64,000 nt of DNA, from assembly GCA_023128825.1 (NCBI GenBank), contig JAGMDF010000082.1, positions 8,626 through 72,625 of the forward strand, read 5' to 3'. The notes below the pieces were generated by a model, which made no database searches, was not told the DNA's origin, and worked only from the letters and a program-made list of their open reading frames with translations. The first letter of the stretch is position 1, and the number at the start of each line of letters is the position of its first letter. Shown here piece after piece: positions 8,700 to 42,922 of the stretch. Position numbers and translations under genes: made by a program. The stretch is from a candidate division WOR-3 bacterium (GTDB taxonomy: Bacteria > Hydrothermota > Tepidihabitantia > B3-TA06).

Positions 8700-10280
8700 G
8701 TGATGTTTGTCTGGCTTCTACTTTTCAGTGCCCCGCTTGACTGCGGAGCTTTTGATGTAATGGCGTTTCGTTCCATAGAAGAGCGTCACGAGTACATAGA
8801 CTCCCTTGCCGGGGAGGATCTTTATGGGACGATAAGTCTGTTGAGTGAAGTCTTGAACTGCCCCTCGGAGCAGACGCGTATGTTTGCTGCCGAAGCTCTT
8901 GGGTATCTGAGTGACCCTGGAGCCACACCTGCCCTTAGTGCTGCGCTAAAGTCGCCCTCTACCGGGGTTCGCTACGAGGCCGCATGGTCATTGGGATTGT
9001 TGGGTGATACCTCAGCGGTGACGTCTTTGATTGAGGCGCTTTCTGATCGTGCGGCACCGGTGCGAACCAACGCCGCCTGGGCGCTGGGGGAGATCGCAGA
9101 CGCGCGGGCGATCGGCGCGTTACTGAAGGCCCTTGACGATACCGACCATCGCGTCCGCAAGAACGCAACCGAGGCCTTGGGTAAGCTCGAATCCAAGGAG
9201 GCGGTTCCTATTTTCCTTGAGCGCCTTTCTTCCCTTTCAGGTCCAGAACGCAACAGTACACTCGCCGCACTGACGAAGATCGCCGACCCCCGAGCCACCG
9301 AGGTTCTCGCCCAAGCCGCCACTAACCCCTCCGTTCCTGACCGCCACCTCATAGCACAGGCACTCGGTCGAATGGGCGACACCACCGCTGTAGAGACCTT
9401 GATAAAGCTCTTGGATGATCCCCGGTGGGCCGTTCGTGCGAAGGCGGCGTGGTCGTTGGGAATGCTTAAAGATAAACGCGCGGTAAAACCACTCCAGACA
9501 AAAGCTACAGACAAGAAATCCGAGGTAAGACAGGCGGTGTTCGAGGCGCTCGGACGCTTAGGCGAGATCTCGGCTGAGGACGTCCTGATCGAAGGTCTTG
9601 CGGATGAGAGCGACCTTTGCGTGATGGCCTCAGCACACGCCCTCGGGCTTCTGGGAAGCAGGAAGGCGCTAGAGCCTCTGATCGAGTTAATGTCCAACCC
9701 GGAACCACCGGTGAGGGAGCAGGTGGCCTTTGCCCTGGGCGCGATTGGAGATCCAGCCGCGGCTGCCTCACTGCGCGCGCGACTCAACGACGCCTCATGG
9801 GAGGTCCAACAGGCCTCCGTGACCGCTATCGGAAGGCTCAAGGACGCATCATCCCTCGAATCGCTGCGTCCGGTTTTGTTCCACAAGTTCTGGAGCATTC
9901 GCCTTGCAGGGGTACAGGCTCTGGGCGCAATCGGTGCTTCGGAAGGACTGCCCCTGCTCCAACAGCGCTTCAAGGACGAGCACCCGGACGTGCGGCGCTG
10001 GTCACATCTGGTGGCCTTGAAGCTGGGAGCCGATCCGGGGAAAGCCCTTACCGGTCTCAAAGAAGAAAACCCTTCCTCTGAGATGCTGGAGGCCGCAACC
10101 TACATGGCAGGAGAGGAGGAGTCGTTAGGACCATGGCAAGGAGAGCTGACAGAGGAACGCTTAAAGCTTCTTGAACTGGTTCATACCGATGAAGCCCGAG
10201 CATTACTTGAGTCGCTCTCCATCCCAGCGGACAACCCGGAGCTCGGCGAGCTGCGCTTGATTATCCTAAGGAGCTGGTAG
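8700..10280 (+). CDS. HEAT-repeat (PBS-lyase-type) protein
   Basis: More than 12 tandem units of about 31 aa of the type VR..AA.ALG..GD..AV..L..AL.D. The start is GTG 8700 or ATG 8703, behind GGAGGAG. Confidence 0.85.
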   Translation: MMFVWLLLFSAPLDCGAFDVMAFRSIEERHEYIDSLAGEDLYGTISLLSEVLNCPSEQTRMFAAEALGYLSDPGATPALSAALKSPSTGVRYEAAWSLGLLGDTSAVTSLIEALSDRAAPVRTNAAWALGEIADARAIGALLKALDDTDHRVRKNATEALGKLESKEAVPIFLERLSSLSGPERNSTLAALTKIADPRATEVLAQAATNPSVPDRHLIAQALGRMGDTTAVETLIKLLDDPRWAVRAKAAWSLGMLKDKRAVKPLQTKATDKKSEVRQAVFEALGRLGEISAEDVLIEGLADESDLCVMASAHALGLLGSRKALEPLIELMSNPEPPVREQVAFALGAIGDPAAAASLRARLNDASWEVQQASVTAIGRLKDASSLESLRPVLFHKFWSIRLAGVQALGAIGASEGLPLLQQRFKDEHPDVRRWSHLVALKLGADPGKALTGLKEENPSSEMLEAATYMAGEEESLGPWQGELTEERLKLLELVHTDEARALLESLSIPADNPELGELRLIILRSW

Positions 10281-10566: not shown

Positions 10567-10637
10567 CTGGGGGACAGGGACTCGAACCCCGATTAACTGA
10601 TCCAGAGTCAGCCGTCCTGCCATTAGACGATCCCCCA
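10567..10637 (-). tRNA. tRNA-Gln (anticodon CTG)
   Basis: The minus strand reads TGGGGGA-TC-GTCT-AATGGCA-GGAC-G-GCTGA-CTCTGGA-TCAGT-TAAT-CGGGG-TTCGAGT-CCCTG-TCCCCCA-G. The U1-A72 pair is typical of bacterial tRNA-Gln. Confidence 0.9.
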
Positions 10638-10684
10638 ATAGTCAAGATTGATTATAAGGGCCAGGCTAATAATGTCAAGCAGGC

Positions 10685-11956
10685 GTGGCTTTTCTTGATC
10701 TATACAATTCCCAGCGGTTGACTTCCGATCATCACACGATAGAATTCCGTGTGAAGCAAGGTCTAAGGCTTGGAATCTATCTTCATGATCGCTACCGCGG
10801 CGGCGGAAACTTTACTGTTTCCAACTCCGAATCGTTGAACTTCATCAAAAGGTTAAAACTCGCCGAGCAAATCTCCTTGGCCGTCTCGGTCACCCCCATT
10901 CAAGATATAGATCGTGGCAACTATCGAGTCGTTGCAGAAGAACTCGGTATAAACCTGCTGCCTTTGCCTGGCTGGCGTAGCCTTGCAGAGAGCTTAACTT
11001 CAATACCCTTTTCCTTGAGTCGAATTCTGAAGACTGCCCGTAACCTGCTGGCAAAAAGCGACATCCTTTGGTTACGTCTGCCTTCCGGGGTTGCTTTTTT
11101 CTTCTGGTGGCTTGCCAAAAAGCAAAACAAGCCGGTAATCATGCACGTATCGGGCAACGTATTAATCGTAGCCCGGTCACAGAAGTATAAAGGCCTGCGT
11201 CGTCTCACGGCTCGATTGGCTTCCTTTACGCTACACCTGTTGACTCGGTGGATGAGTCGTTATGGAATAACTTTGGTAAGCGGAGGAGAGCTGGAGAAGC
11301 TTTTCTCGACCCCATTACACCCTGTATACCAGCTTGACGATATATTACTTTCTGAAAAGAAGCTACTACCCCCCAAGAGAACCAAGGGAGAGGCAAAGGA
11401 TCTACTCTTCGTCGGGCGATTTGACCACGGCAAGGGCATAGAATTGCTGATTCAAGCTATCGAGGATTTGCGAGTTGATTTCCCAGGGATCAGGTTAAGG
11501 ATGGCGGGTGACGGTCCGCTACTTGAGCCTATGCAAAGATTCGTTGCGGAGCGCAACCTTGAAAAGAACGTAAGGATTCTAGGGTTCGTCCCCGCAACCG
11601 GGCCGCTCGAGCGGCTTTACAAGGAGGCGGATATATTTGTATTACCCTCCGACAAAGGTGAGGGTTTCCCAAGGGTTATTCTTGAGGCATGGGGGTCAGG
11701 ATTGCCTGTTCTGGCAACTCGCTTGGGCGGAATCCCTTACAAGATACACCACGACAAAAACGGCCTGCTTGTCACACCGGGCTCCCGCAAGGAATTATTC
11801 AACGCCCTGCACAGGCTTATTCAGGACGGCAACCTGCGCTATCGTTTGGCTAAAGGTGGATACGAGACGATACGTTCCTTGACCTTTGAACATCAGGCTC
11901 GGCGCATCAGAGAGCTGTTGCATCGGTATTACCCCCACCTTGGGGTCCATCCCTGA
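10685..11956 (+). CDS. Glycosyltransferase, GT4 (GT-B fold) family
   Basis: C-terminal GT1/GT4 signature: LLFVGRFDHGKGIELL...PSDKGEGFPRVILEAWGSGLPVLATRLGGIPYKIHHDKNGLLV. The GTG start is uncertain. Confidence 0.75.
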   Translation: MAFLDLYNSQRLTSDHHTIEFRVKQGLRLGIYLHDRYRGGGNFTVSNSESLNFIKRLKLAEQISLAVSVTPIQDIDRGNYRVVAEELGINLLPLPGWRSLAESLTSIPFSLSRILKTARNLLAKSDILWLRLPSGVAFFFWWLAKKQNKPVIMHVSGNVLIVARSQKYKGLRRLTARLASFTLHLLTRWMSRYGITLVSGGELEKLFSTPLHPVYQLDDILLSEKKLLPPKRTKGEAKDLLFVGRFDHGKGIELLIQAIEDLRVDFPGIRLRMAGDGPLLEPMQRFVAERNLEKNVRILGFVPATGPLERLYKEADIFVLPSDKGEGFPRVILEAWGSGLPVLATRLGGIPYKIHHDKNGLLVTPGSRKELFNALHRLIQDGNLRYRLAKGGYETIRSLTFEHQARRIRELLHRYYPHLGVHP

Positions 11957-12014: not shown

Positions 12015-12042
12015 TTGACAGTTGCACGGCAATCAATAGACT
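12015..12042 (+). promoter_or_regulatory. Promoter (TTGACA-16-TAGACT) of the leaderless CDP-alcohol transferase/NTP-transferase/G1PDH operon
   Basis: TTGACA at 12015-12020 and TAGACT at 12037-12042. ATG 12048 lies only 5 nt after the -10 box, and there is no SD. Confidence 0.6.
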
Positions 12043-12047
12043 AGCGG

Positions 12048-12722
12048 ATGAGGAAAATCCCGTCATATCTTAAAGAAACCGACGCCTGGAGCACGGTTCT
12101 CTTTGCCGATCCCCTGGGCATCCCTCTGGCAAGGCTGCTTTCGCATACATCCATCCATCCCAATGTGGTCACGATAGCAAGCCTGGTGCCTGCCTTGGCT
12201 TGTACCTATTTCTTCTGGCGCGGCGATTCCCTCTCGCTTCTATGGGGAGCACTTTTGTTCCAGCTCGCGTGGATTCTCGATTGTACCGACGGCAAGCTTG
12301 CCAAGATGACGGGCAAACAGACGGAGTTTGGAACAAAGCTTGATCCTAAAGTCGACTTCGTGCGCAAACTTCTTACACTGGCAGCCCTGACGTGGGGTAT
12401 ATACCGTCAATTCGGAATCATATGGCTTTTTGTCACCCTGGGTGGCGTTATGTTCCACTACGGTATCCACTTTGTTATTCATCACACTCCGCCACGCATC
12501 AGACAGAAGGAGATACCTCAGGCTCCGGCTGAGGTGAGACTGATCCGCCGGGTAGGACAGCTCTACACAGCCTACGACGAGCAGTTCTTTATCCTTTTCC
12601 TGGGTCCGGCATTGGCCTGGCTTACGCCCCATCTGCCCACCTACGTGATATGGGGTGCAAGCCTCCTTTATGCAATAACCATCCTGATTATCAAGATTCA
12701 GATGAAGCAGAGGGGAAGATGA
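12048..12722 (+). CDS. CDP-alcohol phosphatidyltransferase-family membrane protein
   Basis: Complete signature DG-x2-A(K)-x8-G-x3-D-x3-D in LDCTDGKLAKMTGKQTEFGTKLDPKVD. Several hydrophobic helices. Confidence 0.85.
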   Translation: MRKIPSYLKETDAWSTVLFADPLGIPLARLLSHTSIHPNVVTIASLVPALACTYFFWRGDSLSLLWGALLFQLAWILDCTDGKLAKMTGKQTEFGTKLDPKVDFVRKLLTLAALTWGIYRQFGIIWLFVTLGGVMFHYGIHFVIHHTPPRIRQKEIPQAPAEVRLIRRVGQLYTAYDEQFFILFLGPALAWLTPHLPTYVIWGASLLYAITILIIKIQMKQRGR

Positions 12723-13444
12723 AGGCCATCATCCTGGCCGCAGGCGAAGGTCGCAGGCTTCATCCCCTTACCATCGACCGTCCCAAGGCAATACTCGAGG
12801 TTGGTGGAAGGATGTTGATCGAAAGAGCGCTGTCTGCATTGCGGGGCGCGGGGATTGAAAGATCAGAGGTGATCATCCTGTCCGGACACAAGGTCGAGAA
12901 GTTGAAAGAGGCAGCGCCGGATTGCCGGTTCATTCACAACGAAATCTATGATACAACCAACAACATCTACTCCCTGTGGCTGGCCAGGGGTGAGCTTGTC
13001 GGTCAAGAGTTTTTCCTGCTCAACAGCGACGTCCTTTTTGCTTCGCAGATGGTCAAGGACATACTCCAGGATGCCAGAAGTAGCCTGATGATGGTGGATG
13101 ACGTAAATCCTCTGGTTAAGGAAGAGATGAGGGTGATGGTGAACGGGGAGCAAAGAATCACCGCTATCGCTAAGATCCTTGATCGGGAGCAAAGCGCGGG
13201 CGAATACATCGGACTTGCAAGATTCGGAAAAGACTTCTCTAAAGCGTTCTTTGATAAGATGGACGAGATGATTAAAGCAGGTGAAACCGGTGTGTGGTAC
13301 GAGAACGCCATCGCCGAGATCCTTGGTGAATACCCGATTTATTCCCTCAGTACACGGGGACTGCCCTGGATAGAGGTAGACACCCACGAGGATCTGGCAA
13401 AGGCTCAGGTTATTGCAAAAAAAATTGACAACCTGGAGGCCTAG
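12719..13444 (+). CDS. Nucleotidyltransferase (LicC/IPCT/GlmU-N-type, probable cytidylyltransferase)
   Basis: Start set at ATG 12719, which overlaps the upstream stop (ATGA). N-terminal MKAIILAAGEGRRLHPLTIDRPKAILEV and NNIYSLW motifs. Confidence 0.8.
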   Translation: MKAIILAAGEGRRLHPLTIDRPKAILEVGGRMLIERALSALRGAGIERSEVIILSGHKVEKLKEAAPDCRFIHNEIYDTTNNIYSLWLARGELVGQEFFLLNSDVLFASQMVKDILQDARSSLMMVDDVNPLVKEEMRVMVNGEQRITAIAKILDREQSAGEYIGLARFGKDFSKAFFDKMDEMIKAGETGVWYENAIAEILGEYPIYSLSTRGLPWIEVDTHEDLAKAQVIAKKIDNLEA

Positions 13445-14482
13445 ATGCCCATATTCGGAAGCAGCGTATCACTGCCCATACTGGTGAGGATCGAGGGTAA
13501 CCTGCTGGATAGGGTGAACGAACTCCTTCGCGAGTCCAACCTGCTCTTCACCAAGCCTTTGATAGTTACCATGAAAGAAATTCGATCTATGGCGGATGAG
13601 GTGTCGGCTGGATTCAAAGAACCGCACATCCACGAGATCACCGACAACTCCTACCCTCAGGTGGAGGAGATAGAGGAGGTCATTGATGAGGTCAGACCTG
13701 ACGTGCTCTTAGGTGTAGGAGGCGGCCGGGTGATAGACGTAGCCAAGTTCGCCGGCTCGCGGCGGATTCTTCCTGTGGTCAGCATCCCTACCTCGCTCTC
13801 CAACGATGGCATCTCATCGCCGGTAGCGGTGATTCGTTTCCGCAAAGGCACCCGCAGCGTGGGGGTAAACATGCCTACCGCGGTGCTCGTGGACCTGGGG
13901 GCGATTACCTCCGCGCCCCTCAAAAATCTCAAGGCAGGGGTGGGGGATCTTGTGTCCAACATCTCCGCAACCAACGACTGGCTGATCGCTTATCGCAAGA
14001 CCCACGAACACTACGATACGGTGGCCGCGCTCCTGGCTCGCAAATCAGCGTTCGAGATGCTTGATGCCAGGCGGATCAATCTTACAGACACCTCGTTTTT
14101 AAAGATCCTGGCCGAGGGGCTTATGCTCTCCGGCATCGCCATGGGTATTGCTGGAACCAGCAGGCCCTGCAGTGGTTCGGAGCATCTTTTGAGCCATGCC
14201 TATGACGAGCTTTATCCGGATAAAGTAACGTTGCACGGCGAGCAGGTGGCGATGTTTGCGGTATTTACATCCTATCTTCAGGACGAGCCCTCCGCCTCGG
14301 CCCAAGCCGAGTTCCTTAAGCGAAACGAGTTGATTGCCACCCCCAAGGATATCGGATTAGGGTTCGAGGATTTCAAGAGGATTGTCAAACACGCCCCTTC
14401 CACCCGCCCAGGACGCTACACTATCCTGGAAGAGGTTGACGAGGTGGATAGCGAGAAGGCCTTTCGCAAGGCTTACGGATAA
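13445..14482 (+). CDS. egsA: sn-Glycerol-1-phosphate dehydrogenase homologue (EgsA/AraM family, Fe-ADH_2 fold)
   Basis: Blocks GVGGGRVIDVAKF, IPTSLSNDGISSPVAVI, AGVGDLVSNISATNDWLIAY, RPCSGSEHLLSHAYD, LHGEQVA and RYTIL are collinear with my recollection of archaeal G1PDH (for example GIGGGRSID, PTTASNDGIASP, GMGDIVSNITAVLDW, RPASGSEHLFSHALD, LHGEQ). The ATG abuts the upstream TAG. Confidence 0.75.
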   Translation: MPIFGSSVSLPILVRIEGNLLDRVNELLRESNLLFTKPLIVTMKEIRSMADEVSAGFKEPHIHEITDNSYPQVEEIEEVIDEVRPDVLLGVGGGRVIDVAKFAGSRRILPVVSIPTSLSNDGISSPVAVIRFRKGTRSVGVNMPTAVLVDLGAITSAPLKNLKAGVGDLVSNISATNDWLIAYRKTHEHYDTVAALLARKSAFEMLDARRINLTDTSFLKILAEGLMLSGIAMGIAGTSRPCSGSEHLLSHAYDELYPDKVTLHGEQVAMFAVFTSYLQDEPSASAQAEFLKRNELIATPKDIGLGFEDFKRIVKHAPSTRPGRYTILEEVDEVDSEKAFRKAYG

Positions 14483-14645: not shown

Positions 14646-14673
14646 TTGACATCAAGATTTTGCGTCCTAATAT
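14646..14673 (+). promoter_or_regulatory. Promoter of fbp (TTGACA-16-TAATAT)
   Basis: TTGACA at 14646-14651 and TAATAT at 14668-14673. SD TAAGGAGGA precedes ATG 14726. Confidence 0.6.
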
Positions 14674-14725: not shown

Positions 14726-15814
14726 ATGAGTAAGATAACGCTTTCCGTCATCAAGGCCGACGTCGGCGGTTACGTGGGACACTCGGCCTCGCATCCTGAG
14801 GTGATGGCCAAGGCAGAGGTGATGCTTGACGCAGCCAAGAGGGAGGGAAAGCTCATAGACTTCGAGGTCCTCGCCTGCGGTGACGATCTTGAATTGATCA
14901 TGACCCACACCCACGGCACCGACGCCGAGGTTATTCACAAGCTGGCCTGGGATACCTTTGTTGAAGGCACAGAGGTTGCCAAGAAATTAAAGCTGTACGG
15001 AGCCGGTCAGGATCTTTTAGCCGATGCCTTCTCGGGCAACGTGAAGGGCATGGGTCCGGGTTGTGCGGAGATGGAGTTCGAAGAGCGCAAGAGCGAACCG
15101 GTAATAATCTTCATGGCCGACAAGACCTCGCCCGGCGCGTGGAACTACCCGCTGTACAAGATATTCGCCGATCCGTTCAACACCGCCGGCCTGGTTATCG
15201 ATTCTTCAATGCATGAGGGCTTCACCTTCTTGATCAACGACCCGATGAAGAACAAACGGGTCAAGCTCAATACACCTGAAGAGATGTATGATCTGCTGGC
15301 GCTGATCGGCAGCCACGAGCAGTACGTGGTGGATACGGTGTACCGCAAGGACGGCCTCGTCGCGGCCAAGGCGTCCACACAGAAGCTGGCGCTGATTGCG
15401 GGCAAGTACGTGGGCAAGGACGACCCGGTGATGATCGTTCGCGCCCAGGCGGGCCTGCCAGCTGTGGGCGAGGTGCTGGAGCCGTTCAGCTTCCCCCACG
15501 TGGTCTCAGGCTGGATGCGCGGCTCTCACAACGGGCCCCTGATGCCGGTAAGCTTCAAACAGGCCACTCCGACCCGGTTTGACGGCCCTCCGCGCGTAAT
15601 CGCTGCCGGATTCCAGCTGGCAGACGGAAAACTGATCGGTCCGAGGGACATGTTCGACGATCCGTCGTATGACAGATCGCGAGCCATAGCTAATGAGGTA
15701 GCCGACTACCTGCGCCGCCACGGACCGTTCGAGCCGGGCAGGCTGCCCCACGGTGATATGGAGTACACCACCCTCCCGCAGGTGCTTGAGAAACTTGAAG
15801 ACAGGTTCTCCTAG
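14726..15814 (+). CDS. fbp: Bifunctional fructose-1,6-bisphosphate aldolase/phosphatase (class V FBPase)
   Basis: Near full-length collinearity with the archaeal-type enzyme as I recall it: SVIKADVGGYVGHS, GDDLELIMTH, GAGQDLLADAFSGNVKGMGPG, FMADKTSPGAWNYPLYKIFADPFNTAGLVID, GKYVGKDDPVMIVR, GWMRGSHNGPLMPV, TRFDGPPR. Confidence 0.95.
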   Translation: MSKITLSVIKADVGGYVGHSASHPEVMAKAEVMLDAAKREGKLIDFEVLACGDDLELIMTHTHGTDAEVIHKLAWDTFVEGTEVAKKLKLYGAGQDLLADAFSGNVKGMGPGCAEMEFEERKSEPVIIFMADKTSPGAWNYPLYKIFADPFNTAGLVIDSSMHEGFTFLINDPMKNKRVKLNTPEEMYDLLALIGSHEQYVVDTVYRKDGLVAAKASTQKLALIAGKYVGKDDPVMIVRAQAGLPAVGEVLEPFSFPHVVSGWMRGSHNGPLMPVSFKQATPTRFDGPPRVIAAGFQLADGKLIGPRDMFDDPSYDRSRAIANEVADYLRRHGPFEPGRLPHGDMEYTTLPQVLEKLEDRFS

Positions 15815-16674
15815 TGTTCTTGCGCAAGAATCTGCGCCCCGCCCGCGAAGCGCGCAAGAAGCTCGACCTTAAAGACGGATTGTGGCTTAAATGCGAAAGC
15901 TGCGGCGAGATCCTCTACCGCCGCGAGCTCGATCAATCATGCTGGATCTGCCCCAAGTGCGGTTTCCACTTCCGTGTAGGTCACAAAACCTACATCAAGC
16001 TGCTTCTGGATGAGGGCAAACTGGAAGAGATAGACAGGGGACTCGTGTCTGTTGATCCTTTGCGTTTTCCCAAGTACAAGGAGAAGTACAAAACCTCACG
16101 CAAGAAGACCGGAATGGAAGAGGGGATAGTCTCGGGCAGAGCCGAGATCAATGGTATGCCGGTTATTTTTGCGGCTACGGACTTCGCGTTCATGGGCGGA
16201 AGCATGGGTTCTGTGGTGGGCGAGAAGGTGGCTCGTGCGGCTCGATTGGCTCTGGCCGAACGCAAACCGTTCGTGATGCTTACCGCCTCAGGCGGAGGGG
16301 CACGAATGCAGGAAGGAATCTTCTCCCTCATGCAGATGGCCAAGACCTCAGCCGAGGTTGGCCTGCTCAAACAGGCTCAGATTCCATACATCAACATCCT
16401 GACTCACCCGACGATGGCCGGGGTAATGGCCTCCTTCGCCTCCCTGGGCGACGTGATCATCGCCGAGCCTGGAGCGCTTCTGGGATTTACCGGCCCACGG
16501 GTCATAGAGCAGACCATAGGCGAGAAGCTTCCGCCCGGATTCCAGCGCTCCGAGTTCCTCCTGGAGCACGGCTTCGTGGATATCGTGTGCTCCCGCCGCG
16601 AGCTCAGGGAGACCGTGGCCAGGATACTGAGCATCCTTACCGAACCTCATAAGGAGCCGTCATCTCAGACATAG
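15814..16674 (+). CDS. accD: Acetyl-CoA carboxylase carboxyltransferase beta subunit
   Basis: Zn-ribbon CESCGEILYRRELDQSCWICPKCGFHFR followed by the carboxyltransferase core GRAEINGMPVIFAATDFAFMGGSMGSVVGEK. GTG 15814 overlaps the fbp TAG by 1 nt. Confidence 0.9.
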   Translation: MFLRKNLRPAREARKKLDLKDGLWLKCESCGEILYRRELDQSCWICPKCGFHFRVGHKTYIKLLLDEGKLEEIDRGLVSVDPLRFPKYKEKYKTSRKKTGMEEGIVSGRAEINGMPVIFAATDFAFMGGSMGSVVGEKVARAARLALAERKPFVMLTASGGGARMQEGIFSLMQMAKTSAEVGLLKQAQIPYINILTHPTMAGVMASFASLGDVIIAEPGALLGFTGPRVIEQTIGEKLPPGFQRSEFLLEHGFVDIVCSRRELRETVARILSILTEPHKEPSSQT

Positions 16675-29982: not shown

Positions 29983-31671
29983 ATGAAAAAAGTGGTGTTG
30001 ATTATGGGAGGGCTGATTTTATGCGGCTCACTTTGGGCTACCGCTCCGATGAGGGAAGGTCCATACCCCAGGGAAGCAATTCCCTCTCCTCTGATGCCGG
30101 ACACCATGAATCCATTGAAACTGCGCTTCAACTATCTTTACGAGTTTGCACAGATTGCCCAGTTCTGCGCCGAATGGCAGCTGGACGAGGCGGATTCTGC
30201 AGATCACGGCGGGATGATAGAGGCGGAAACAGGCCCTCTGCGCCCGGTAATCCAGACCGACAACACCCTGGAGGCGATCTGGGTGTGGGCGCGCTACGGG
30301 GAATTTACCGGAGATACGGCCAGGTTCCGGGAGAATATCGACAAAGCATGGTTTTACTGCAACAACTTCCCCGCCTGGCAGGAGGAGGGTGAGCCGGGTG
30401 CCCATTATTACCGCAACCACAACTGCGCGTGGGGCGTGGCGGCGGAGCAGCGCTACCGCGCGGTGTATGCTGACGACGCCTACAGGTGGTATGCCGATTC
30501 CTGTGCGGAGTTCATGAAGTTCCATCCCATGAACATCTGGAACATGGTCAACCGCTTCGTCACCGGCTGGTGCGCGGGTTGGCTGTACTCCTACGGGGTG
30601 GAGCGAGAAGACGGCGAGGCCCGGGACAGTGCGTGCTCGTTCGCCGACAGCCTGCTCAGCTTCATCGAACCCCAGATCGAGGCAAAGCTCGGGGACGAAA
30701 GGTGGGCGATGTCTGCAGGAACCATGGTGTGGGGCATCTGTAACTCCGCCTTTCAGCGAGATAGTCTCAGAGGCAAGGAATGGATCGAGGCAAACGGCCC
30801 CTACCTTGATACCTTCCAGACCTGGTATGCCAACGATTATTTCTCCTGGGATAACGCCTGGAACGTGGGGTTTGCCAACGGCCACGGCGCGATGTACGAT
30901 ATATCGCATGATCCTACTTATGCCCGCCACCACCGCTGGCTCACCCACAAGCTTCTTTCCTACGATACCGACTCGGACGGCGGGATAATGGCCACCACCC
31001 AGGACGTGGATACCACGGACATGACCTGGGTGTCATTATATCTCTGCATGATGGGTCTTGACCGGTTGATCGGAGAAGTTTATGACTACGACGCGGGCGC
31101 GCTGGAGATTGTGGGACTCCACGACGGTGATCAGATAGAGGAGGGAACCCGGATGGACCTGGTGGCGGTGGTTTCGAATTACGGTCGAGAGCCGCTCAGC
31201 AACGTAAAGGTGACACTTTCTGGCGACGCATCGGGTTCGGCTGAATCAGACCTTGCCTTCCTTGGGATGGACACGATAACGCTCGTATTTGATTGGCTTG
31301 TACCTGATTCGGCTGTGCTTACCCTGACGACATCACATCCACAGGACGAAGATCACGCTAACGACACATTGATCGTGCGGCTGAACAAAGCGGCAGGCAT
31401 AAATGAGGGGTCGAAAAAACCGTCGAGATTACATCTGGAGGTCGCCTCCCTGACAAAATCGATCTGCCGCATTACTTATGCCCTTCCTGAGGGGAATCAC
31501 GGTGAGCTTTCGCTCTACAACATCCTCGGCGCCAAAGTCAAAAGAGAAAACCTGAGGACTTCTGATGGAGTAGTGGATTGGGATCTTTCCGGGCTACCCG
31601 GCGGGGTTTACTTCGTCCGGCTCAACTCAGGAGATCATCACATCACAAGGCGGCTTACCTTGTTGCGTTAA
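29983..31671 (+). CDS. Secreted protein with T9SS-type C-terminal sorting domain (N-terminal region possibly alpha/alpha-toroid-like)
   Basis: Signal peptide MKKVVLIMGGLILCGSLWA. C-terminus ELSLYNILGAKVKRENL...WDLSGLPGGVYFVRLNSGDHHITRRLTLLR. Confidence 0.75.
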   Translation: MKKVVLIMGGLILCGSLWATAPMREGPYPREAIPSPLMPDTMNPLKLRFNYLYEFAQIAQFCAEWQLDEADSADHGGMIEAETGPLRPVIQTDNTLEAIWVWARYGEFTGDTARFRENIDKAWFYCNNFPAWQEEGEPGAHYYRNHNCAWGVAAEQRYRAVYADDAYRWYADSCAEFMKFHPMNIWNMVNRFVTGWCAGWLYSYGVEREDGEARDSACSFADSLLSFIEPQIEAKLGDERWAMSAGTMVWGICNSAFQRDSLRGKEWIEANGPYLDTFQTWYANDYFSWDNAWNVGFANGHGAMYDISHDPTYARHHRWLTHKLLSYDTDSDGGIMATTQDVDTTDMTWVSLYLCMMGLDRLIGEVYDYDAGALEIVGLHDGDQIEEGTRMDLVAVVSNYGREPLSNVKVTLSGDASGSAESDLAFLGMDTITLVFDWLVPDSAVLTLTTSHPQDEDHANDTLIVRLNKAAGINEGSKKPSRLHLEVASLTKSICRITYALPEGNHGELSLYNILGAKVKRENLRTSDGVVDWDLSGLPGGVYFVRLNSGDHHITRRLTLLR

Positions 31672-32851
31672 ACTCCTTCCAAGCGGGAAGTATAACCTTA
31701 TAGTAGTACTCCTCGGCAAGACGCTTGCGGTCGAAACGTTCGCCTACTTTTCTTGCTCGCTTTGACATCTTGCGTAATCGAGCGGGGTCCTTAAGTAATG
31801 CTGCGGTTTGTTCTGCCAAGAGCTGGGGGGATGAATCAAGGATACCTGCTTTGTTGTCTGTAATCAACCGCTTTGTCTCTATGTAGAAGTCAGGGTCAAG
31901 CAATCCGATAACCGGTAGACCAGCCGCCAGGTACTCATATTCTTTCGCGCCTATCGCTCCCCGGTAAGCGGGGCAGTTACCCAAAAGAGCGTTTAACCCT
32001 AAGCGAGCGCGACCCAAGAGTCCTGGGAGTTTCTCAGGAGGGTGAGGGAACTCAATGAACACATTCTTCCATAAACCGAGACGGTCTATTCCCTCAAGGA
32101 ATTCCCTGCCAATCGGATTATCCAGGTTTGAAATAAAAAGGGCGCGCAATGATGGGTAAAGGCCTGCAAGAAACCGTAGGTATTTCAATAGACCTGCCGG
32201 GTTTCTGATTGCTATGAAGGTGCCAGAGTAAACGATATCGAATTCCTTCTTTACAGAAAGTCCTCCCGCAGAGATGCTCGTTTCGCTGCCATTACGCACC
32301 ACGAATAGTCGATGAGATGGGTAGTCGAGAAACTCCACCAGCTCTTTCTTGAGCCAATCGGTAACCGTGGTTATCCGGGAGGCCCTTACCCCCAGACGTT
32401 TCAATGAATTGATCTGAAAGGTCTTAAATGCCGTATGTATCAGCGTTGTTTTAGCCCGGATACCTCCCTGAGGCAAATCCCTCACATCAAGTATAAAAGG
32501 AACCCCAAGTCGCTTAGCCAACAAGTAACCCTCCCACATAGGCCATGCCGGAGGAATACTTGCCACTACAGCATCAGGATTGAGAGTTTTAACCTTCCGT
32601 AACAATCTGGAGAATGTCCAAGGAAGGTGTAGGAAATCGAGACGCAACCTGGCGAGGGGGAAGACAAGCCTGTTATAGCCCGTTGGTTTGTTAACATGTT
32701 CGGGTGCCACCACAGTAACTTGAGTCAACGCGCTCCAGTATTTGGCAAATGAATGAAGCCGCGAAGCGGCTGCCCCTCTAAAGGGAGGAAAAAGTGGTGC
32801 AAGTATCAAAATGTGAGGTCTTGGGGTATCCATATCCTGATAATGCTTCAT
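31655..32851 (-). CDS. Glycosyltransferase (GT4-like)
   Basis: GT-B layout, with the N-terminus ILILAPLFPPFRGAAASR and the C-terminus GAKEYEYLAAGLPVIG. It sits next to the flippase and wecB genes. Confidence 0.7.
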   Translation of the reverse strand: MKHYQDMDTPRPHILILAPLFPPFRGAAASRLHSFAKYWSALTQVTVVAPEHVNKPTGYNRLVFPLARLRLDFLHLPWTFSRLLRKVKTLNPDAVVASIPPAWPMWEGYLLAKRLGVPFILDVRDLPQGGIRAKTTLIHTAFKTFQINSLKRLGVRASRITTVTDWLKKELVEFLDYPSHRLFVVRNGSETSISAGGLSVKKEFDIVYSGTFIAIRNPAGLLKYLRFLAGLYPSLRALFISNLDNPIGREFLEGIDRLGLWKNVFIEFPHPPEKLPGLLGRARLGLNALLGNCPAYRGAIGAKEYEYLAAGLPVIGLLDPDFYIETKRLITDNKAGILDSSPQLLAEQTAALLKDPARLRKMSKRARKVGERFDRKRLAEEYYYKVILPAWKEFNATR

Positions 32852-32873
32852 CTTTTTAACGCTTCAAATCGCA

Positions 32874-34346
32874 TCAATCTTGTTCTCTTCGCAGAAATAT
32901 CTTTCTGAGAAACTTACGTTCAGAGGGAAGGAGAAATCCTGAAAATGTCAAGCCGGCAAAATAAAGGGCACTGCCCCCACCCAGCTTGATCAGGGAACCC
33001 AGCAGCGGGGTAAGTGGATGCCAGAAGAAACTTCCGGCAGTAATACTCAAACTTACCAAGGCGATGAGCAGGATGCGCTTGATCTCGTAGGGTATCTTCA
33101 TAAGTCGGCGGCTAAAAAAGATCATTGCCAAAAGCATCGCAGTGTAAGAAACGAGTGAGGCAAGCGCAGCCGCCCAAAGTCCGATCTTAGGTAATAAGAT
33201 TACATTAATTAACACGACAACTGCCGCTCCAATTAACGAGGTCCACGTGAAGAATCCTGTTCTTCTCTTTATGTAGCAAGGGGTAGATATAATGCTGTAG
33301 GCGCCGTAAAGACAAATCCCTAGAAGGAGAACGGGAATAAGGGGGTAACCCTCCCAGTATTCCGGTTTTTTGGCGATAATCTGCACAAGCTCTTTTGCGC
33401 ACCCCCCGATCACAATTAGCGCCCAGCCGCCGATGAACAGCATGTAAGTAAGTACACGAGAGGTTATCCTGGGAAGATCATCTCTTTCCTTAATAGAAAA
33501 AGCGTAGGGGATCCAGGCCAGGTTAACCGTCGCAACCAAAAGAAAAGAAACCAGGTTAGCAATATTCACAGCGAACCCATACACCCCCACCGCAGCTTCG
33601 CCAAGAACAGGCTTTATGAGCCAGCGATCAAGCATGTTTCTGATCCAGAAAAAGGCCATATTGGGAACCAAAGGCAGTGCATACCGGAACATGCTGCCCA
33701 AACTCTTAAAAGAAAACTTGATTCCTCGAGTATAAACATATACGATTGCTGTCACTGGTAAGAAGAACACCAGCGCCATAATCACATCTACCTGGTATAG
33801 CCCCACAAGGTCTCTTTTCAAAACCACGAGGAAGATAACCATCAATCCCACTTTGACCAGAGACTTGGCTATTGTAAAGATAGTGTAGACGCCCGGACGT
33901 CTCTCGCAGCGCAGGAAGGAAAGGAAAATAAAGCTGGGTGGTGTCAGCGTAGTAAAGATTGCAAACAACCGAAGTATAGCTACTGCATCCGGGGTGTCCA
34001 AAGCCATGAGTCGTGCCAGTTGTGGGGCAAAGAGGAAAGTCAACCCACCTATTAAGAAGGAGGTTATAACACTGAAGGTGAACCCGGTGGAGATGACGGT
34101 TCGGCGTTCTTCAGGGGTCTTGACTTTGTAGAAATCGGCTATAACTGCCTGTTCGATTGAAAGCAGAATAATAATTTTAAGAATTTCGTAAAGGGGTATA
34201 GTCAAGTTGCGGATCCCGTAACTCGCGATGGGAAGATAGGCGGAGTAGAGGGGAAGCAACACAAATCGAATAAGACGGTCGCTGGCGTTGCCGATCCCGT
34301 ATATCAACGTATCTTTAGTAAGGCTCTTGAAATCCTTTAAGGCCAT
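32874..34346 (-). CDS. Polysaccharide biosynthesis protein / Wzx-type flippase (MOP superfamily)
   Basis: 490 aa with about 12-14 hydrophobic helices. N-terminus TLIYGIGNASDRLIRFVLLPLYSAYL is typical of oligosaccharide flippases. Confidence 0.8.
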   Translation of the reverse strand: MALKDFKSLTKDTLIYGIGNASDRLIRFVLLPLYSAYLPIASYGIRNLTIPLYEILKIIILLSIEQAVIADFYKVKTPEERRTVISTGFTFSVITSFLIGGLTFLFAPQLARLMALDTPDAVAILRLFAIFTTLTPPSFIFLSFLRCERRPGVYTIFTIAKSLVKVGLMVIFLVVLKRDLVGLYQVDVIMALVFFLPVTAIVYVYTRGIKFSFKSLGSMFRYALPLVPNMAFFWIRNMLDRWLIKPVLGEAAVGVYGFAVNIANLVSFLLVATVNLAWIPYAFSIKERDDLPRITSRVLTYMLFIGGWALIVIGGCAKELVQIIAKKPEYWEGYPLIPVLLLGICLYGAYSIISTPCYIKRRTGFFTWTSLIGAAVVVLINVILLPKIGLWAAALASLVSYTAMLLAMIFFSRRLMKIPYEIKRILLIALVSLSITAGSFFWHPLTPLLGSLIKLGGGSALYFAGLTFSGFLLPSERKFLRKIFLRREQD

Positions 34347-34352
34347 AAGGTC

Positions 34353-35456
34353 TTATAAGCCCAGGGCCTTAAGTATCTCCTGCTGCATCCGCTCGACCGC
34401 CTTGCCGTTGCCAAACGCCTCTAGATCGGGCGGTTGATCCGGAAGCGTTAGTTGCGCGATTCCCTCCAGTATAGCTTTGGGATCTGTACCTACAATATGG
34501 TTCCATCCTTCCTCAAGCGTTTCCGGCCACTCGGTCTCCTCCCGAAGCGTAAGACAGGGACGGGAAAGGAAGTATGCTTCGCGCTGCACGCCGCCAGAAT
34601 CCGTAAGGATCAAGGAAGCATGTTCCTCCAGCACAAGCATGTCGAGATAAGATACCGGAGGGATTACGTCGATGTTATCCAGATCGTGAGAGGAAAGCTT
34701 ATCCAGTGTCTTGGCGGTTCGCGGATGACACGGAAAAATGATACGGGGGCGATCTTCGCGGATAAATGCTTTGATGATCATTCCAAGCTTGCTTTCGTCG
34801 TCAACGTTGGAAGGTCGATGCATGGTTAAAAGCCAGAAGGGCTGATCATTCAACGCCAAACGATCGAGCACATCCGAGGTTTCGTGAGCCCGCGGCAGGA
34901 AGTAATGAAGGGTATCCAAAAGAATGTCCCCGGTGTGAATCACTCCATCTTTGCGTCCTTCCTTTTTGAGGTTGTTAACCGAGGTCGGTGTAGGGCAAAA
35001 CAAAATTTCCGAAACCGCATCGGTTACTATACGATTTATTTCTTCCGGCATCCTGCGGTTGCCGCTGCGTAGCCCTGCCTCAACGTGAGCAACCGGGATG
35101 TGGAGCTTTACCGCGGCTAAGGCTCCGGCGAGCGTTGAGTTGGTGTCGCCGTAAACTATGACCAGATCAGGCTTCTCATCCATAAGCACCTTCTCGATCC
35201 CAATCATCGCATCGCCGGTCTGACGGGCGTGGGTTCCTGAACCTACACCAAGATCGAAGTCAGGACGGTAGTTGAGTTCGTCGAAAAAGACCTGTGCCAT
35301 GTCAGGGCTGTAGTGCTGACCGGTATGAAGATGAAGGTGGGTCAATCCCGGAGCTTCTCTGGCTAAAGTCCTAGAAAGCATCGCCGCCTTGATGAACTGG
35401 GGACGGGCACCGACTACTGAGAGGAGCTTTCTCTGCGCTCCAGGAACATCAAACAT
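34353..35456 (-). CDS. wecB: UDP-N-acetylglucosamine 2-epimerase (non-hydrolysing)
   Basis: VVGARPQFIKAA, VYGDTNSTLAGALAAVKLHIPVAHVEAGLRS, PEEINR, LTDSGGVQREA. Confidence 0.9.
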   Translation of the reverse strand: MFDVPGAQRKLLSVVGARPQFIKAAMLSRTLAREAPGLTHLHLHTGQHYSPDMAQVFFDELNYRPDFDLGVGSGTHARQTGDAMIGIEKVLMDEKPDLVIVYGDTNSTLAGALAAVKLHIPVAHVEAGLRSGNRRMPEEINRIVTDAVSEILFCPTPTSVNNLKKEGRKDGVIHTGDILLDTLHYFLPRAHETSDVLDRLALNDQPFWLLTMHRPSNVDDESKLGMIIKAFIREDRPRIIFPCHPRTAKTLDKLSSHDLDNIDVIPPVSYLDMLVLEEHASLILTDSGGVQREAYFLSRPCLTLREETEWPETLEEGWNHIVGTDPKAILEGIAQLTLPDQPPDLEAFGNGKAVERMQQEILKALGL

Positions 35457-35461
35457 GCTGA

Positions 35462-35489
35462 ATCATAAATGAGATTTTCCCTATGTCAA
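35462..35489 (-). promoter_or_regulatory. Promoter (TTGACA-16-TATGAT) of wecB operon, leaderless
   Basis: The minus-strand -10 box ends 5 nt before ATG 35456, and there is no SD. Confidence 0.6.
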
Positions 35490-35512
35490 TAAGCACAACC
35501 AGAGTGCCCTCA

Positions 35513-35541
35513 TTGACAGAAGCCAGCAAGCGAGGTATTAT
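35513..35541 (+). promoter_or_regulatory. Promoter (TTGACA-17-TATTAT) of lptFG, leaderless
   Basis: The -10 box ends 5 nt before ATG 35547, and there is no SD. Confidence 0.6.
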
Positions 35542-35546
35542 TTGGT

Positions 35547-36752
35547 ATGTGGAGATTCCCGCGCTACGTTCTGCGGCAGTACCTCGTCCCTCTCGTTCTT
35601 GCATGGGCGGTGCTTACCGGCGTATTCCTTATGGACAGGCTCTTTCTGCTTGTAGATCTCATCGTCCGCAAAGGCCTGGCACTACAGCACGTTTTGGAGA
35701 TACTCCTCTACACCTTGCCATTTGTCATGGCCATGTCGGTTCCACTCGCATCACTTGCAGGTGCGATGATGACCTTCGGCAGGCTGGCTCAGGACAACGA
35801 GATACTTGCCTTGCGTTCTGCAGGAGTGAGACTCTTTTCGGTTTTTGTACCCATGCTTTGGTTTACCGCATTGCTTGCAGGAGTCATGGTCTACTTCAAT
35901 CTCTACGTGCTGCCTGAGGCCAACCACCGCGTAAGGAACATGCTCGCGGACGTCTCGAGCAAGAAGCCTACGGCGCGTATTGAGGAGGGACTCTTTAACG
36001 AAGATTTCCCAGGCTACACCATATACATCGCCCGAAAGGACGAGCGCCGCTCCAGGATCTACGATGTGATGGTATATGTAAAGAAGAGCACGGTTCCCAC
36101 GATGATCACGGCACCCGAGGGCAAACTTGAGGTCACCGCGGATGAACGCTACATGATAATGACTCTCTACGGGAGCGAGATCCACGAACAGGTGGGGGAT
36201 AACTACCGGCGCATCCAGTCGGACACGCAGGTAATCAACCTTGAGATGAACACCGAACTTATAAGGCGGGAACGCAGCAGGCGTTCGGAAAGGGAGATGA
36301 CCCTCCCAATGCTTGCGGCGGATATAGAGAAAAACAGAGAGAAGACAGGGGAATATGAAGCAGAACTCACAGAAGTGGGGAGCAACAAGATTAAACGTGA
36401 GGAGCTCGGTCGTCGCATCGAGAGCCTGGGGCGAAGGATCAACAGCCTGCGGGCCGAGATACACAAGTCTATTGCCTTTGCGATTGCTGGGATTATCTTC
36501 CTGTGTTTCGGAGCTGCCCTTGGAGGCAAGCTTCGTCGAGGTGGAATCGGGCTTGCGATTGTACTGAGCCTTATCTTCTTTGCGTTCTACTACATCCTTC
36601 TCATTGGCGGAGAGAACCTTGCCAAGTCAGGCAAATTGGTCGCATGGATCGCGATGTGGATGCCAAACCTCATCTTTCTCCCGTTCACAGTGGAGATCTT
36701 TGGGGAGGTATTTTTCGAGAACTCCCTCTTCCTGTGGAGACTGCGCCGATGA
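35547..36752 (+). CDS. lptF: LptF/LptG-family LPS export permease
   Basis: YjgP/YjgQ N-terminus RYVLRQYLVPLVLAWAVLTGVFLMDRLF and periplasmic beta-jellyroll region. Confidence 0.8.
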   Translation: MWRFPRYVLRQYLVPLVLAWAVLTGVFLMDRLFLLVDLIVRKGLALQHVLEILLYTLPFVMAMSVPLASLAGAMMTFGRLAQDNEILALRSAGVRLFSVFVPMLWFTALLAGVMVYFNLYVLPEANHRVRNMLADVSSKKPTARIEEGLFNEDFPGYTIYIARKDERRSRIYDVMVYVKKSTVPTMITAPEGKLEVTADERYMIMTLYGSEIHEQVGDNYRRIQSDTQVINLEMNTELIRRERSRRSEREMTLPMLAADIEKNREKTGEYEAELTEVGSNKIKREELGRRIESLGRRINSLRAEIHKSIAFAIAGIIFLCFGAALGGKLRRGGIGLAIVLSLIFFAFYYILLIGGENLAKSGKLVAWIAMWMPNLIFLPFTVEIFGEVFFENSLFLWRLRR

Positions 36753-37831: not shown

Positions 37832-37844
37832 GTTGGAGGTTTGT

Positions 37845-42840: not shown

Positions 42841-42922
42841 GCCGGGGTGGTGAAATTGGCAGACACGTACGTTTGAGGGGCGTATGGGTAACTCCGTGCG
42901 GGTTCAAGTCCCGCCCCCGGCA
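42841..42922 (+). tRNA. tRNA-Leu (anticodon GAG)
   Basis: Class II tRNA: acceptor GCCGGGG/CCCCGGC, anticodon arm TACGT-TTGAGGG-GCGTA, long variable arm, T arm GCGGG-TTCAAGT-CCCGC. Confidence 0.9.

Follow-up and report, generated by a model that had tools for sequence, protein, structure and literature searches.

What use might a bacterium make of a glycerol-1-phosphate dehydrogenase (G1PDH) whose gene is coupled to those of a cytidylyltransferase and a CDP-alcohol phosphotransferase? The question is raised by a three-gene operon in a 64,000-nt stretch of DNA (the whole of which is called the window here) from a candidate division WOR-3 bacterium (contig JAGMDF010000082.1, assembly GCA_023128825.1, forward-strand positions 8,626-72,625), in which gene 1 encodes a CDP-alcohol phosphotransferase, gene 2 a LicC/IPCT-type nucleotidyltransferase and gene 3 a G1PDH-family dehydrogenase (Table 1). 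On balance, we favour the reading that the operon makes sn-glycerol-1-phosphate (G1P), activates it to CDP-glycerol and decorates an envelope glycan or lipid with it; the first two steps taken together, from dihydroxyacetone phosphate (DHAP) through G1P to CDP-sn-1-glycerol, appear likely. The coupling of the genes is as a preliminary description of the sequence had given it, with the stop codon of gene 1 overlapping the start of gene 2 in an ATGA (12719-12722) and the TAG of gene 2 (13442-13444) abutting the ATG of gene 3 (13445-13447). In GenBank, exact matches to proteins of the window are deposited under candidate division WOR-3 as an iron-containing alcohol dehydrogenase family protein (MCK4232708.1) and a phosphocholine cytidylyltransferase family protein (MCK4232707.1), and an 80% relative carries the label Candidatus Stahlbacteria.

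The association of these genes is not confined to the window. A scan of species-representative genomes (one per species) with an alignment of the G1PDH clade gave at least 600 matches, 596 of which were confirmed, and 80 loci were kept from it, most of them from Streptomyces and the others from Streptacidiphilus, Actinomycetota metagenome-assembled genomes (MAGs), Kerfeldbacteria of the candidate phyla radiation (CPR), Sarcina and other MAGs. Linkage was counted in 91 loci, 85 by open reading frame (ORF) and six retrieved by exact-protein look-up. A homologue of gene 2 (denoted NTP below) lay directly beside a homologue of gene 3 (denoted G1PDH) in 83 of the 85 and five of the six, that is, in 88 of the 91; lineages with this pair include WOR-3/Stahlbacteria, Streptomyces/Streptacidiphilus, other Actinomycetota MAGs, Carboxydothermus, Sarcina, Kerfeldbacteria and further MAGs. 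A CDP-alcohol (CDP-OH) transferase, of type A or type B (denoted A and B), was found no more than 3 kb from the pair in 79 of the 91 loci, with two of them within 3 kb in 70. Since about 70 of the 91 loci are from Streptomyces, the independent lineages number only about 10. A stricter adjacency count, based on tblastn high-scoring segment pair (HSP) coordinates and a 150-nt window, gave 66/91, a figure that is too low because HSPs begin inside genes, and the ORF-based count was used instead. A word-indexed homologue search with the transferase returned only 28 matches; a full hidden Markov model (HMM) scan revealed distant relatives and fusions. Solitary G1PDH-like genes without an adjacent cytidylyltransferase (about 37-41% identity) were found at L009 and L011, beside GH57/glucodextranase-like genes, and at L086, beside a gene for a 613-aa thiol-reductase-like protein; because these three interleave with NTP-linked genes in a neighbour-joining (NJ) tree, the linkage was lost or acquired on more than one occasion. 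What is new here is the conserved NTP-G1PDH(-CDP-OH) module across phyla, which resembles both GpsA/TagD/TagF and MIPS/IPCT/DIPPS and is a member of neither. A full-text literature search found no published description of a G1P cytidylyltransferase, of bacterial CDP-1-glycerol synthesis, of DUF5941 (a domain of the Streptomyces clusters described below) or of the gene triad.

Gene 3 matched Fe-ADH_2 (PF13685) at 92.9 bits, the cut-off being 28, and scored 249.7 bits with the G1PDH model NF002022 as against 66.9 with GldA and 28.3 with AroB. Its matches in the PDB were 3ce9 (159 bits), the G1PDHs of M. jannaschii (143.7 bits) and P. calidifontis (136 bits) and AraM (90 bits), with GldA at no more than 52.7 bits. 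A profile of the bacterial clade scored 261 bits with the M. jannaschii enzyme, 237 with that of P. calidifontis and 149 with AraM, and at most 101 with glycerol dehydrogenases and 53 with dehydroquinate synthases (DHQS); the AraM entry, 9h4x, is one that we take, from its sequence, to be the B. subtilis protein. A rough NJ tree puts the window clade between AraM/3ce9 and the archaeal EgsA pair, so that gene 3 is bracketed, in the tree as in the scores, by experimentally verified G1PDHs. These results agree with the preliminary description, which had put the protein with the G1PDHs rather than with GldA or DHQS, and all the EgsA-like motifs quoted there, GGGRVIDVAKF and HGEQ among them, are present. 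In our alignment D168, H247 and H264 of gene 3 correspond to D148, H226 and H247 of the M. jannaschii enzyme, reportedly its metal-binding triad (Carbone et al. 2015); among 20 homologues the two histidines are invariant and D168 is nearly so. The SRPxSG and RxxR motifs of verified EgsA and AraM are largely kept, with R321 and R324 invariant in A1 and K at the first of these positions in 3ce9. Gene 3 is therefore predicted from its family to catalyse the NAD(P)H-dependent reduction of DHAP to G1P.

The preliminary description had called G1PDH rare in bacteria, with AraM as the exception, a view that does not hold against the number of matches in our scan or against a synteny survey of 2026 that lists the cluster genes of Streptomyces as uncharacterised, as syntenic with araM/tagG/tagH and as conserved across at least 75% of 929 complete genomes (PMC13118837). 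Bacterial G1PDH homologues have been treated as markers of the lipid divide and as evidence of archaeal-type lipids (PMC6431249, PMC5059525). On such a view the operon would serve the synthesis of an archaeal-type ether lipid, as with AraM/PcrB in Bacillus or in the proposal for the FCB group, with G1P as the backbone and the CDP-OH enzyme as head-group transferase. The family membership of gene 3 fits this, and the best NCBIfam match of gene 1 is an archaetidylinositol-phosphate synthase (AIPS), but at 55 bits against a cut-off of 180. However, the annotated genes of the window (64 kb) and those gene tables of homologous loci that were read, the scope of all gene absences given here, include neither GGGPS/PcrB nor DGGGPS or any other UbiA-type prenyltransferase nor CarS, and the constant partner of the dehydrogenase is a cytidylyltransferase for soluble substrates, which has no role in that pathway. 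The archaeal-lipid reading was therefore set aside as highly improbable, and the archaeal-type lipid stereochemistry hinted at in the preliminary description is unsupported.

For gene 2, the closest solved relative was LicC (1jyk; 61.5 bits), aligned at full length over residues 1-234, followed at 59.4 bits by the phosphonate cytidylyltransferase 6pd1. Its best NCBIfam match was the IPCT half of IPCT/DIPPS (NF041135), at 73.7 bits against a cut-off of 580. The nucleotide-binding loop, of the G-x-G-x-R-L type, is present as LAAGEGRRL at residues 6-14, and the LicC/IPCT-type assignment made at the outset is thus confirmed. In the 530-aa protein P0326, encoded on a 38.8-kb contig in NCBI, a homologue of gene 2 (37% identity, 173 bits) is fused to a type-A-like CDP-OH transferase; this fusion is not a canonical IPCT/DIPPS, scoring 103 bits against the cut-off of 580. 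That gene 2 would use CTP is suggested solely by its coupling to a CDP-dependent transferase, and we predict that it is a CTP:sn-glycerol-1-phosphate cytidylyltransferase. The nearest named relatives of gene 2 outside WOR-3 include archaeal proteins of Methanofollis and Thermococcus with about 40-43% identity (P0183 and P0244 in our list); because these organisms make G1P natively, this enzyme family may make CDP-1-glycerol in archaea too.

Gene 1 matched PF01066 at 52.8 bits (cut-off 22), and its signature, D78-CT-DG-KL-AK-x8-G-TKL-D-PKV-D103, is complete over residues 78-103 for the pattern D-x2-DG-x2-AR/K-x8-G-x3-D-x3-D, as had been noticed before in the form DG-x2-AK-x8-G-x3-D-x3-D. Residues D78, D81, G82, A85, G95 and D99 are invariant among 20 homologues and D103 is nearly so. 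The AlphaFold2 (AF2) model (pLDDT 92.4) has a juxtamembrane helix and six transmembrane (TM) helices, with helices at residues 14-31, 38-58, 61-88, 93-122, 124-146, 175-188 and 196-221, which together with the signature places gene 1 among the class-I CDP-alcohol phosphotransferases. All characterised NCBIfam equivalogs scored it well under their cut-offs: besides AIPS, it reached 47 bits with the phosphatidylinositol-phosphate synthases (PIPS; cut-off 170), 31.3 bits with IPCT/DIPPS NF041135 (cut-off 580) and 28.7 bits with PgsA TIGR00560 (cut-off 109.1), so that it lies outside PgsA. The nearest solved relative is AF2299, both by sequence (36.8 bits) and by fold (TMq 0.65 in Foldseek), with PIPS and DIPPS (4mnd) ranking next and CHPT1 structurally remote (E ~0.5); these neighbours do not tell whether the acceptor would be soluble or a glycan or glycolipid. 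In AF2299, described as non-lipid-processing, the glycerol of CDP-glycerol sits in a small hydrophilic donor pocket, and the six-TM architecture has been linked with soluble acceptors (PMC4634129). The CDP-alcohol phosphotransferase assignment made from the motif thus holds, and gene 1, of type A, is predicted to be a CDP-glycerol:acceptor glycerophosphotransferase.

Taken together, the genes may act as follows. Gene 3, judged by its family and intact active site, would reduce DHAP to G1P; gene 2, judged by its LicC/IPCT-type fold, its constant place beside gene 3 and its CDP-dependent partner, would join G1P and CTP to give CDP-sn-1-glycerol; and gene 1 would move glycerophosphate (GroP) from this presumed donor onto a hydroxyl of a membrane-associated acceptor, with release of CMP. 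Most likely the acceptor would be an envelope glycan or glycolipid, lipid-linked or lipid-anchored, that is probably made with the adjacent GT4 glycosyltransferase and modified on the cytoplasmic side before export, and the product would be a teichoic-acid-like GroP decoration of the surface glycan of this diderm. In other phyla the NTP-G1PDH pair would feed TagF-like or CDP-OH-type transferases. CDP-glycerol is the most economical intermediate because the pair stays together across phyla, the third partner is a CDP-OH or PF04464 transferase and AF2299 binds CDP-glycerol; the sequence DHAP, G1P, CDP-glycerol and transfer to an alcohol, as originally suggested, also draws on the fusion protein P0326 and on AF2299 being the nearest relative of gene 1. 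A TagF-like polymerase builds polymer from enantiopure CDP-1-glycerol in vitro (PMC8262930), suggesting that the chemistry is feasible.

Of the three products that the preliminary description had considered, a glycoconjugate fits the genomic contexts best, with modules inside Wzx/Wzy, TagO/TagA/TagF-like and TagGH-type clusters. In Carboxydothermus (L001), genes for TagO-like, TagB/F-like (PF04464), DUF5693 and TagA-like proteins precede NTP and G1PDH, and in a 1.1-Mb actinobacterial contig (L088) a PF04464 gene is divergent from the pair; PF04464 stood beside the pair only at these two loci. At L087 the order is Wza, Ugd, Wzc, NTP and G1PDH, with Wzy_C further on. At L089 it is Wzx, methyltransferase, CDP-OH(A), NTP, G1PDH, GT2, Wzy_C, GT4, GT2 and Bac_transf, by its gene content a textbook repeat-unit cluster, in which the type-A transferase is 47% identical to gene 1. 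In Kerfeldbacteria (L007) GT4, Wzx, NTP, G1PDH and CDP-OH(B) follow one another, with GT4 one gene (Wzx) upstream of the module. The Streptomyces cluster, present genus-wide at about 70 loci (e.g. L003:3303-10551), consists of a CDP-OH(A) protein with DUF5941 (~600-650 aa), NTP, an araM-like G1PDH, CDP-OH(B) (~260 aa), a GT2 and an ABC exporter resembling TagG/H. It is a candidate route by which actinomycetes could make poly(GroP) independently of LtaS. Squalene/phytoene-synthase and amino-oxidase genes come after the cluster in L003, the only Streptomyces locus for which the gene table was followed to that point.

Within WOR-3 the three-gene core is constant and its genomic position varies. 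The order GT4a, module and fructose-1,6-bisphosphate (FBP) aldolase/phosphatase is found in the window and at L004, L005 and L093, and at L002 the module is flanked by a different GT4 (GT4b). The L002 locus is syntenic, by tblastn, with a second glycan locus of the window (29983-38906), which encodes a Por_Secre_tail protein, GT4b, Wzx, UDP-GlcNAc 2-epimerase, LptF, LptG and a WD40 protein; the GT4b and Wzx genes are direct neighbours in the window, and in L002 the module and a type-B CDP-OH transferase are inserted exactly between them. It is these glycan-cluster contexts, best seen in L089 with its 47% identical type-A transferase and in the insertion at L002, that favour a glycan or glycolipid acceptor.

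The same contexts bear on a compatible solute, the product for which we found the least support and one we regard as quite improbable. Here CDP-glycerol and glycerol-3-phosphate or inositol-1-phosphate would give, after dephosphorylation, diglycerol phosphate or glycerophosphoinositol, by analogy with IPCT/DIPPS, and it is to the IPCT half of that protein that gene 2 is closest in NCBIfam, while AF2299 and DIPPS, the nearest solved relatives of gene 1, are six-TM enzymes not acting on lipids. An FBP aldolase/phosphatase, of a kind characteristic of thermophiles and deep-branching autotrophs, is encoded in the window as well, and such solutes are known from thermophiles. For archaeal glycerophosphoinositol, in addition, CDP-1-glycerol has been named as donor (PMC8262930). 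However, neither a phosphatase nor an inositol-phosphate synthase (MIPS) was found in the genes covered, the scores of genes 2 and 1 with IPCT/DIPPS (73.7 and 31.3 bits) are far from 580, the module lies within polysaccharide or teichoic-acid clusters in most lineages, and it is near-universal in mesophilic Streptomyces, there with a TagGH-like exporter. An inositol-phosphate synthase consistently encoded in homologous operons would have counted against the route first proposed, as the preliminary description had remarked; none was seen in the contexts examined, and the inositol reading was set aside.

Several points weigh against the glycan-decoration reading. The conserved genetic module is well supported, but the biochemistry assigned to it is wholly inferential. 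Gene 3, at 249.7 bits, does not reach the NF002022 equivalog cut-off of 413 bits and is, by this measure, a G1PDH-family member outside the curated archaeal EgsA equivalog. Gtp1 of S. pneumoniae, which is described as similar to the family of gene 3, reduces dihydroxyacetone and not DHAP, on a route to CDP-2-glycerol. AF2299 and DIPPS do not process lipids, and the window operon has no dedicated exporter. At L092, also from WOR-3, the module stands alone, without GT4 or glycan genes beside it, and at L006 and L090 the core lies among housekeeping genes (rpoD/dnaG or ileS) with no glycan genes adjacent; for these stand-alone cores an acceptor that occurs everywhere, for example diacylglycerol or else a soluble phospho-alcohol, would fit equally well.

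In another reading, the dehydrogenase would act on a different substrate, for example dihydroxyacetone or another keto-phosphate, giving for example CDP-2-glycerol or another CDP-polyol. The score below the equivalog cut-off fits this. The family does include proteins of unproven activity, such as the structural-genomics protein 3ce9, annotated 'glycerol dehydrogenase', and the Gtp1-3 pathway is a precedent (PMC1391919). Such a route would need a kinase or phosphotransferase equivalent to Gtp3, and none was found beside the pair at any locus with annotated neighbours. The invariant Zn-binding histidines and nearly invariant aspartate, the SRPxSG and RxxR motifs largely shared with verified EgsA and AraM, and the position of gene 3 between verified G1PDHs also argue against a different substrate, which we consider very unlikely.

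A lipid acceptor deserves more weight, although we still regard it as unlikely. In a Kennedy-type synthesis of phosphatidylglycerol (PG) or a phosphoglycolipid, another of the products first considered and one that keeps a place among the alternatives, CDP-sn-1-glycerol and diacylglycerol would give PG with its natural sn-1' head group, bypassing CDP-diacylglycerol (CDP-DAG), PgsA and PG phosphate (PGP) phosphatase. The stereochemistry is exact, natural PG made by such a route requiring G1P and not glycerol-3-phosphate (PMC8262930), and CDP-inositol-dependent head-group transfer to lipids by small bacterial CDP-OH transferases has been proposed or reported (PMC9246714 and its reference 34). 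The core alone in housekeeping surroundings, as at L092, L006 and L090, is what would be expected with a universal lipid acceptor. Streptomyces, however, makes PG by the canonical route and nevertheless conserves the module with an exporter and GT2; the type-A homologue of L089 is embedded in a Wzx/Wzy repeat-unit cluster; and the exporter- and polymerase-rich contexts would be left unexplained. The low scores of PgsA-type models also stand against this route, though they are expected for a different reaction. The solved lipid-acceptor enzymes CHPT1 and CEPT1 have extra TM helices and are structurally remote from gene 1 (E ~0.5; PMC4634129).

If the decoration of envelope glycans is the correct reading, it may extend well beyond WOR-3. 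We suggest, tentatively and with some doubt, that the deep-branching bacterial 'G1PDH' clan supplies CDP-sn-1-glycerol for the cytoplasmic assembly of envelope structures containing sn-glycerol-1-phosphate (Gro1P), that the modules of the window and of Streptomyces could be the missing LtaS-independent route to poly(Gro1P) of the lipoteichoic acid (LTA) type and to Gro1P decorations of glycans, and that class-I CDP-alcohol phosphotransferases might serve as glycan or polymer glycerophosphotransferases, which would be an activity not previously demonstrated in that family. Free Gro1P and CDP-1-glycerol are described as probably absent from most bacteria, with all Gro1P of LTA, PG, rhamnose polysaccharides and lipopolysaccharide (LPS) assumed to derive from phosphatidylglycerol (PMC8262930); a widespread G1PDH-cytidylyltransferase pair, if it acts as proposed, would overturn this assumption and bring into glycopolymer biosynthesis a donor and a family of transferases that are both new to it. 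LTA-producing actinomycetes lack LtaS, with a pathway that was unresolved as of 2011 (PMC3196553), and the Streptomyces module, listed as 'orphan' in 2026 (PMC13118837), would offer concrete candidate genes for actinobacterial LTA. Since bacterial G1PDH homologues have also been used as evidence on the membranes of LUCA, the last universal common ancestor (PMC6431249, PMC5059525), arguments on the lipid divide would need re-reading if their bacterial role is glycopolymer decoration.

Table 1. Positions, in window coordinates, of the operon genes, associated sites and related loci
Feature	Position	Strand	Basis
Gene 1, CDP-alcohol phosphotransferase (224 aa)	12048-12722	+	ORF, PF01066
Gene 2, LicC/IPCT-type nucleotidyltransferase (241 aa)	12719-13444	+	ORF counted from ATG of ATGA; Pfam NTP_transf_3/NTP_transferase
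Gene 3, G1PDH-family dehydrogenase (345 aa)	13445-14482	+	ORF; Fe-ADH_2
Sigma-70-like promoter: TTGACA (12015-12020), 16-nt spacer, TAGACT (12037-12042)	12015-12042	+	Promoter scan, 10/12
CDP-alcohol phosphotransferase catalytic signature, D78-D103	12279-12356	+	Regular expression on translation
GT4a glycosyltransferase, directly upstream of operon	10685-11956	+	Glycos_transf_1, 130 bits
FBP aldolase/phosphatase, directly downstream of operon	14726-15814		PF01950, 609 bits
Promoter-like site of FBP aldolase/phosphatase	14646-14673		Promoter scan
Second glycan locus: GT4b, Wzx-type flippase, UDP-GlcNAc 2-epimerase, beside LptF/LptG	31655-35456	-	Pfam; context, not operon

The promoter claimed ahead of gene 1 was found, with its TTGACA and TAGACT hexamers 16 nt apart. 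The -10 hexamer ends 5 nt upstream of the ATG at 12048, an in-frame TAG lies two codons before this ATG, and inspection of the sequence ahead of gene 1 gave no Shine-Dalgarno; genes 2 and 3 are preceded by Shine-Dalgarno-like GAGGGG and GGAGG, respectively, both at normal spacing. The hexamers are kept in an identical layout ahead of the L004 orthologues and were seen by eye ahead of those of L002 (proteins 66% identical), there with 8 nt between the -10 hexamer and the ATG. Because the -10 hexamer is so close to the ATG, with an in-frame stop upstream, no Shine-Dalgarno and conserved hexamers, a leaderless or near-leaderless mRNA for the first cistron, as had been proposed, is plausible. The terminator scan gave no terminator-like site after 14482. 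At gathering thresholds the only Rfam matches in the window were three tRNAs; no riboswitch was seen near the operon. Base composition over 6-20 kb of the window was unremarkable, and a horizontal-transfer signature was rejected as a candidate feature.

Both neighbours of the operon are as first described. The upstream GT4a is a probable functional partner that would build or extend the acceptor glycan or glycolipid. A functional tie to the downstream FBP aldolase/phosphatase, which the earlier account had called DHAP-linked, is unlikely, because this gene has its own promoter-like site and its adjacency is lost in L002 and L092; the linkage was accordingly rejected. The FBP aldolase/phosphatase is of class V (594 bits, over the equivalog cut-off), and its stop overlaps the GTG start (15814) of an AccD-type carboxyltransferase gene, the pair spanning 14726-16674 and being retained in L004, L005 and L093. 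Immediately upstream of GT4a is a tRNA gene on the - strand (10567-10637; Rfam, 58 bits), and ahead of it a perfect 12/12 promoter (TTGACA, 16 nt, TATAAT; 10651-10678, - strand), the strongest site in the scanned region. Positions 8700-10280 encode a 526-aa protein made up almost entirely of HEAT/PBS-lyase repeats (seven HEAT_2 stretches, 284 bits) with GC locally raised to 0.56-0.61; a HEAT-repeat protein upstream of GT4a is also found in L004 and L005.

Two further regions of the window lie apart from the operon. A gene on the - strand (53666-57349) encodes a protein of 1227 aa that has a Baseplate_J-like domain (49 bits) and adjoins genes for a protein of 360 aa that matched nothing in Pfam and a CarboxypepD_reg/Plug outer-membrane protein of 1050 aa; the locus may represent a remnant of a contractile-injection or phage-tail-like system. 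A tRNA gene (42841-42922, + strand) is followed by genes for a Zincin_1 protein and a Phage_integrase/SAM_1-type tyrosine recombinase (43410-44378, - strand), which could be XerC/D, or the site could be an integration hotspot.

How, then, does the module relate to known systems? With AraM/PcrB of B. subtilis and archaeal EgsA it shares the enzyme family and metal-binding residues of gene 3, but it has no prenyltransferase partner, and its G1P is predicted to be a CDP-activated donor of a head group or decoration rather than a lipid backbone. The Gtp pathway of S. pneumoniae, in turn, pairs a reductase with a LicC-like cytidylyltransferase. Gtp1-Gtp2-Gtp3 belongs to a capsule locus and is dedicated to making an unusual isomer of CDP-glycerol (PMC1391919), but it needs a third enzyme, glycerol-2-phosphotransferase, which is absent in the module, and its product is CDP-2-glycerol. 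Bacterial routes of the Kennedy type (Treponema LicC with CDP-choline:diacylglycerol phosphotransferase, the CDP-inositol of Rhodothermus and a proposed cluster of Bacteroides vulgatus) likewise combine a LicC-like NTP with a small CDP-OH transferase and a soluble CDP-alcohol donor (PMC9246714), whereas the alcohol of the module would be glycerol phosphate from a dedicated G1PDH and a lipid acceptor is only hypothetical for it. A. fulgidus AF2299, solved with CMP and CDP, is the nearest relative of gene 1 by sequence and fold and has a donor pocket that fits CDP-glycerol (PMC4634129), but identity is only about 20% and its N-terminal cytidylyltransferase-like domain is lacking in gene 1.

The closest parallels in logic are two complete pathways. 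In the MIPS/IPCT/DIPPS pathway to di-myo-inositol phosphate, a phospho-alcohol is made, CDP-activated by an enzyme of the LicC/IPCT fold and transferred by a six-TM CDP-alcohol phosphotransferase; fused NTP::CDP-OH relatives of the module exist (P0326), and gene 1 has DIPPS (4mnd) among its structural neighbours. In the module, however, a G1PDH-family enzyme replaces MIPS, which was not found, the genes are separate, no phosphatase is present and the context is that of an envelope glycan and not a solute; this, with NF041135 scores of 73.7 and 31.3 bits for a cut-off of 580, places it outside that pathway. The GpsA/GlpK-TagD-TagB/TagF pathway makes CDP-glycerol, in that case CDP-sn-3-glycerol, and on the cytoplasmic side attaches GroP to lipid-linked glycans; in Carboxydothermus and the actinobacterial contig the pair even lies beside PF04464 TagB/F-like genes, and in Carboxydothermus beside TagO- and TagA-like genes as well. 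The cytidylyltransferase of the module, however, is LicC/GT-A-like and not PF01467, no TagD-type cytidylyltransferase having been found in the genes covered; the dehydrogenase is of another family; the transferase of the window is PF01066 and not PF04464, both PF01467 and PF04464 being absent from the operon; and the predicted glycerol enantiomer is the opposite one. The module would thus work like the GpsA/TagD/TagF pathway without being a member of it, as an alternative that uses other protein families and the other enantiomer of glycerol phosphate.

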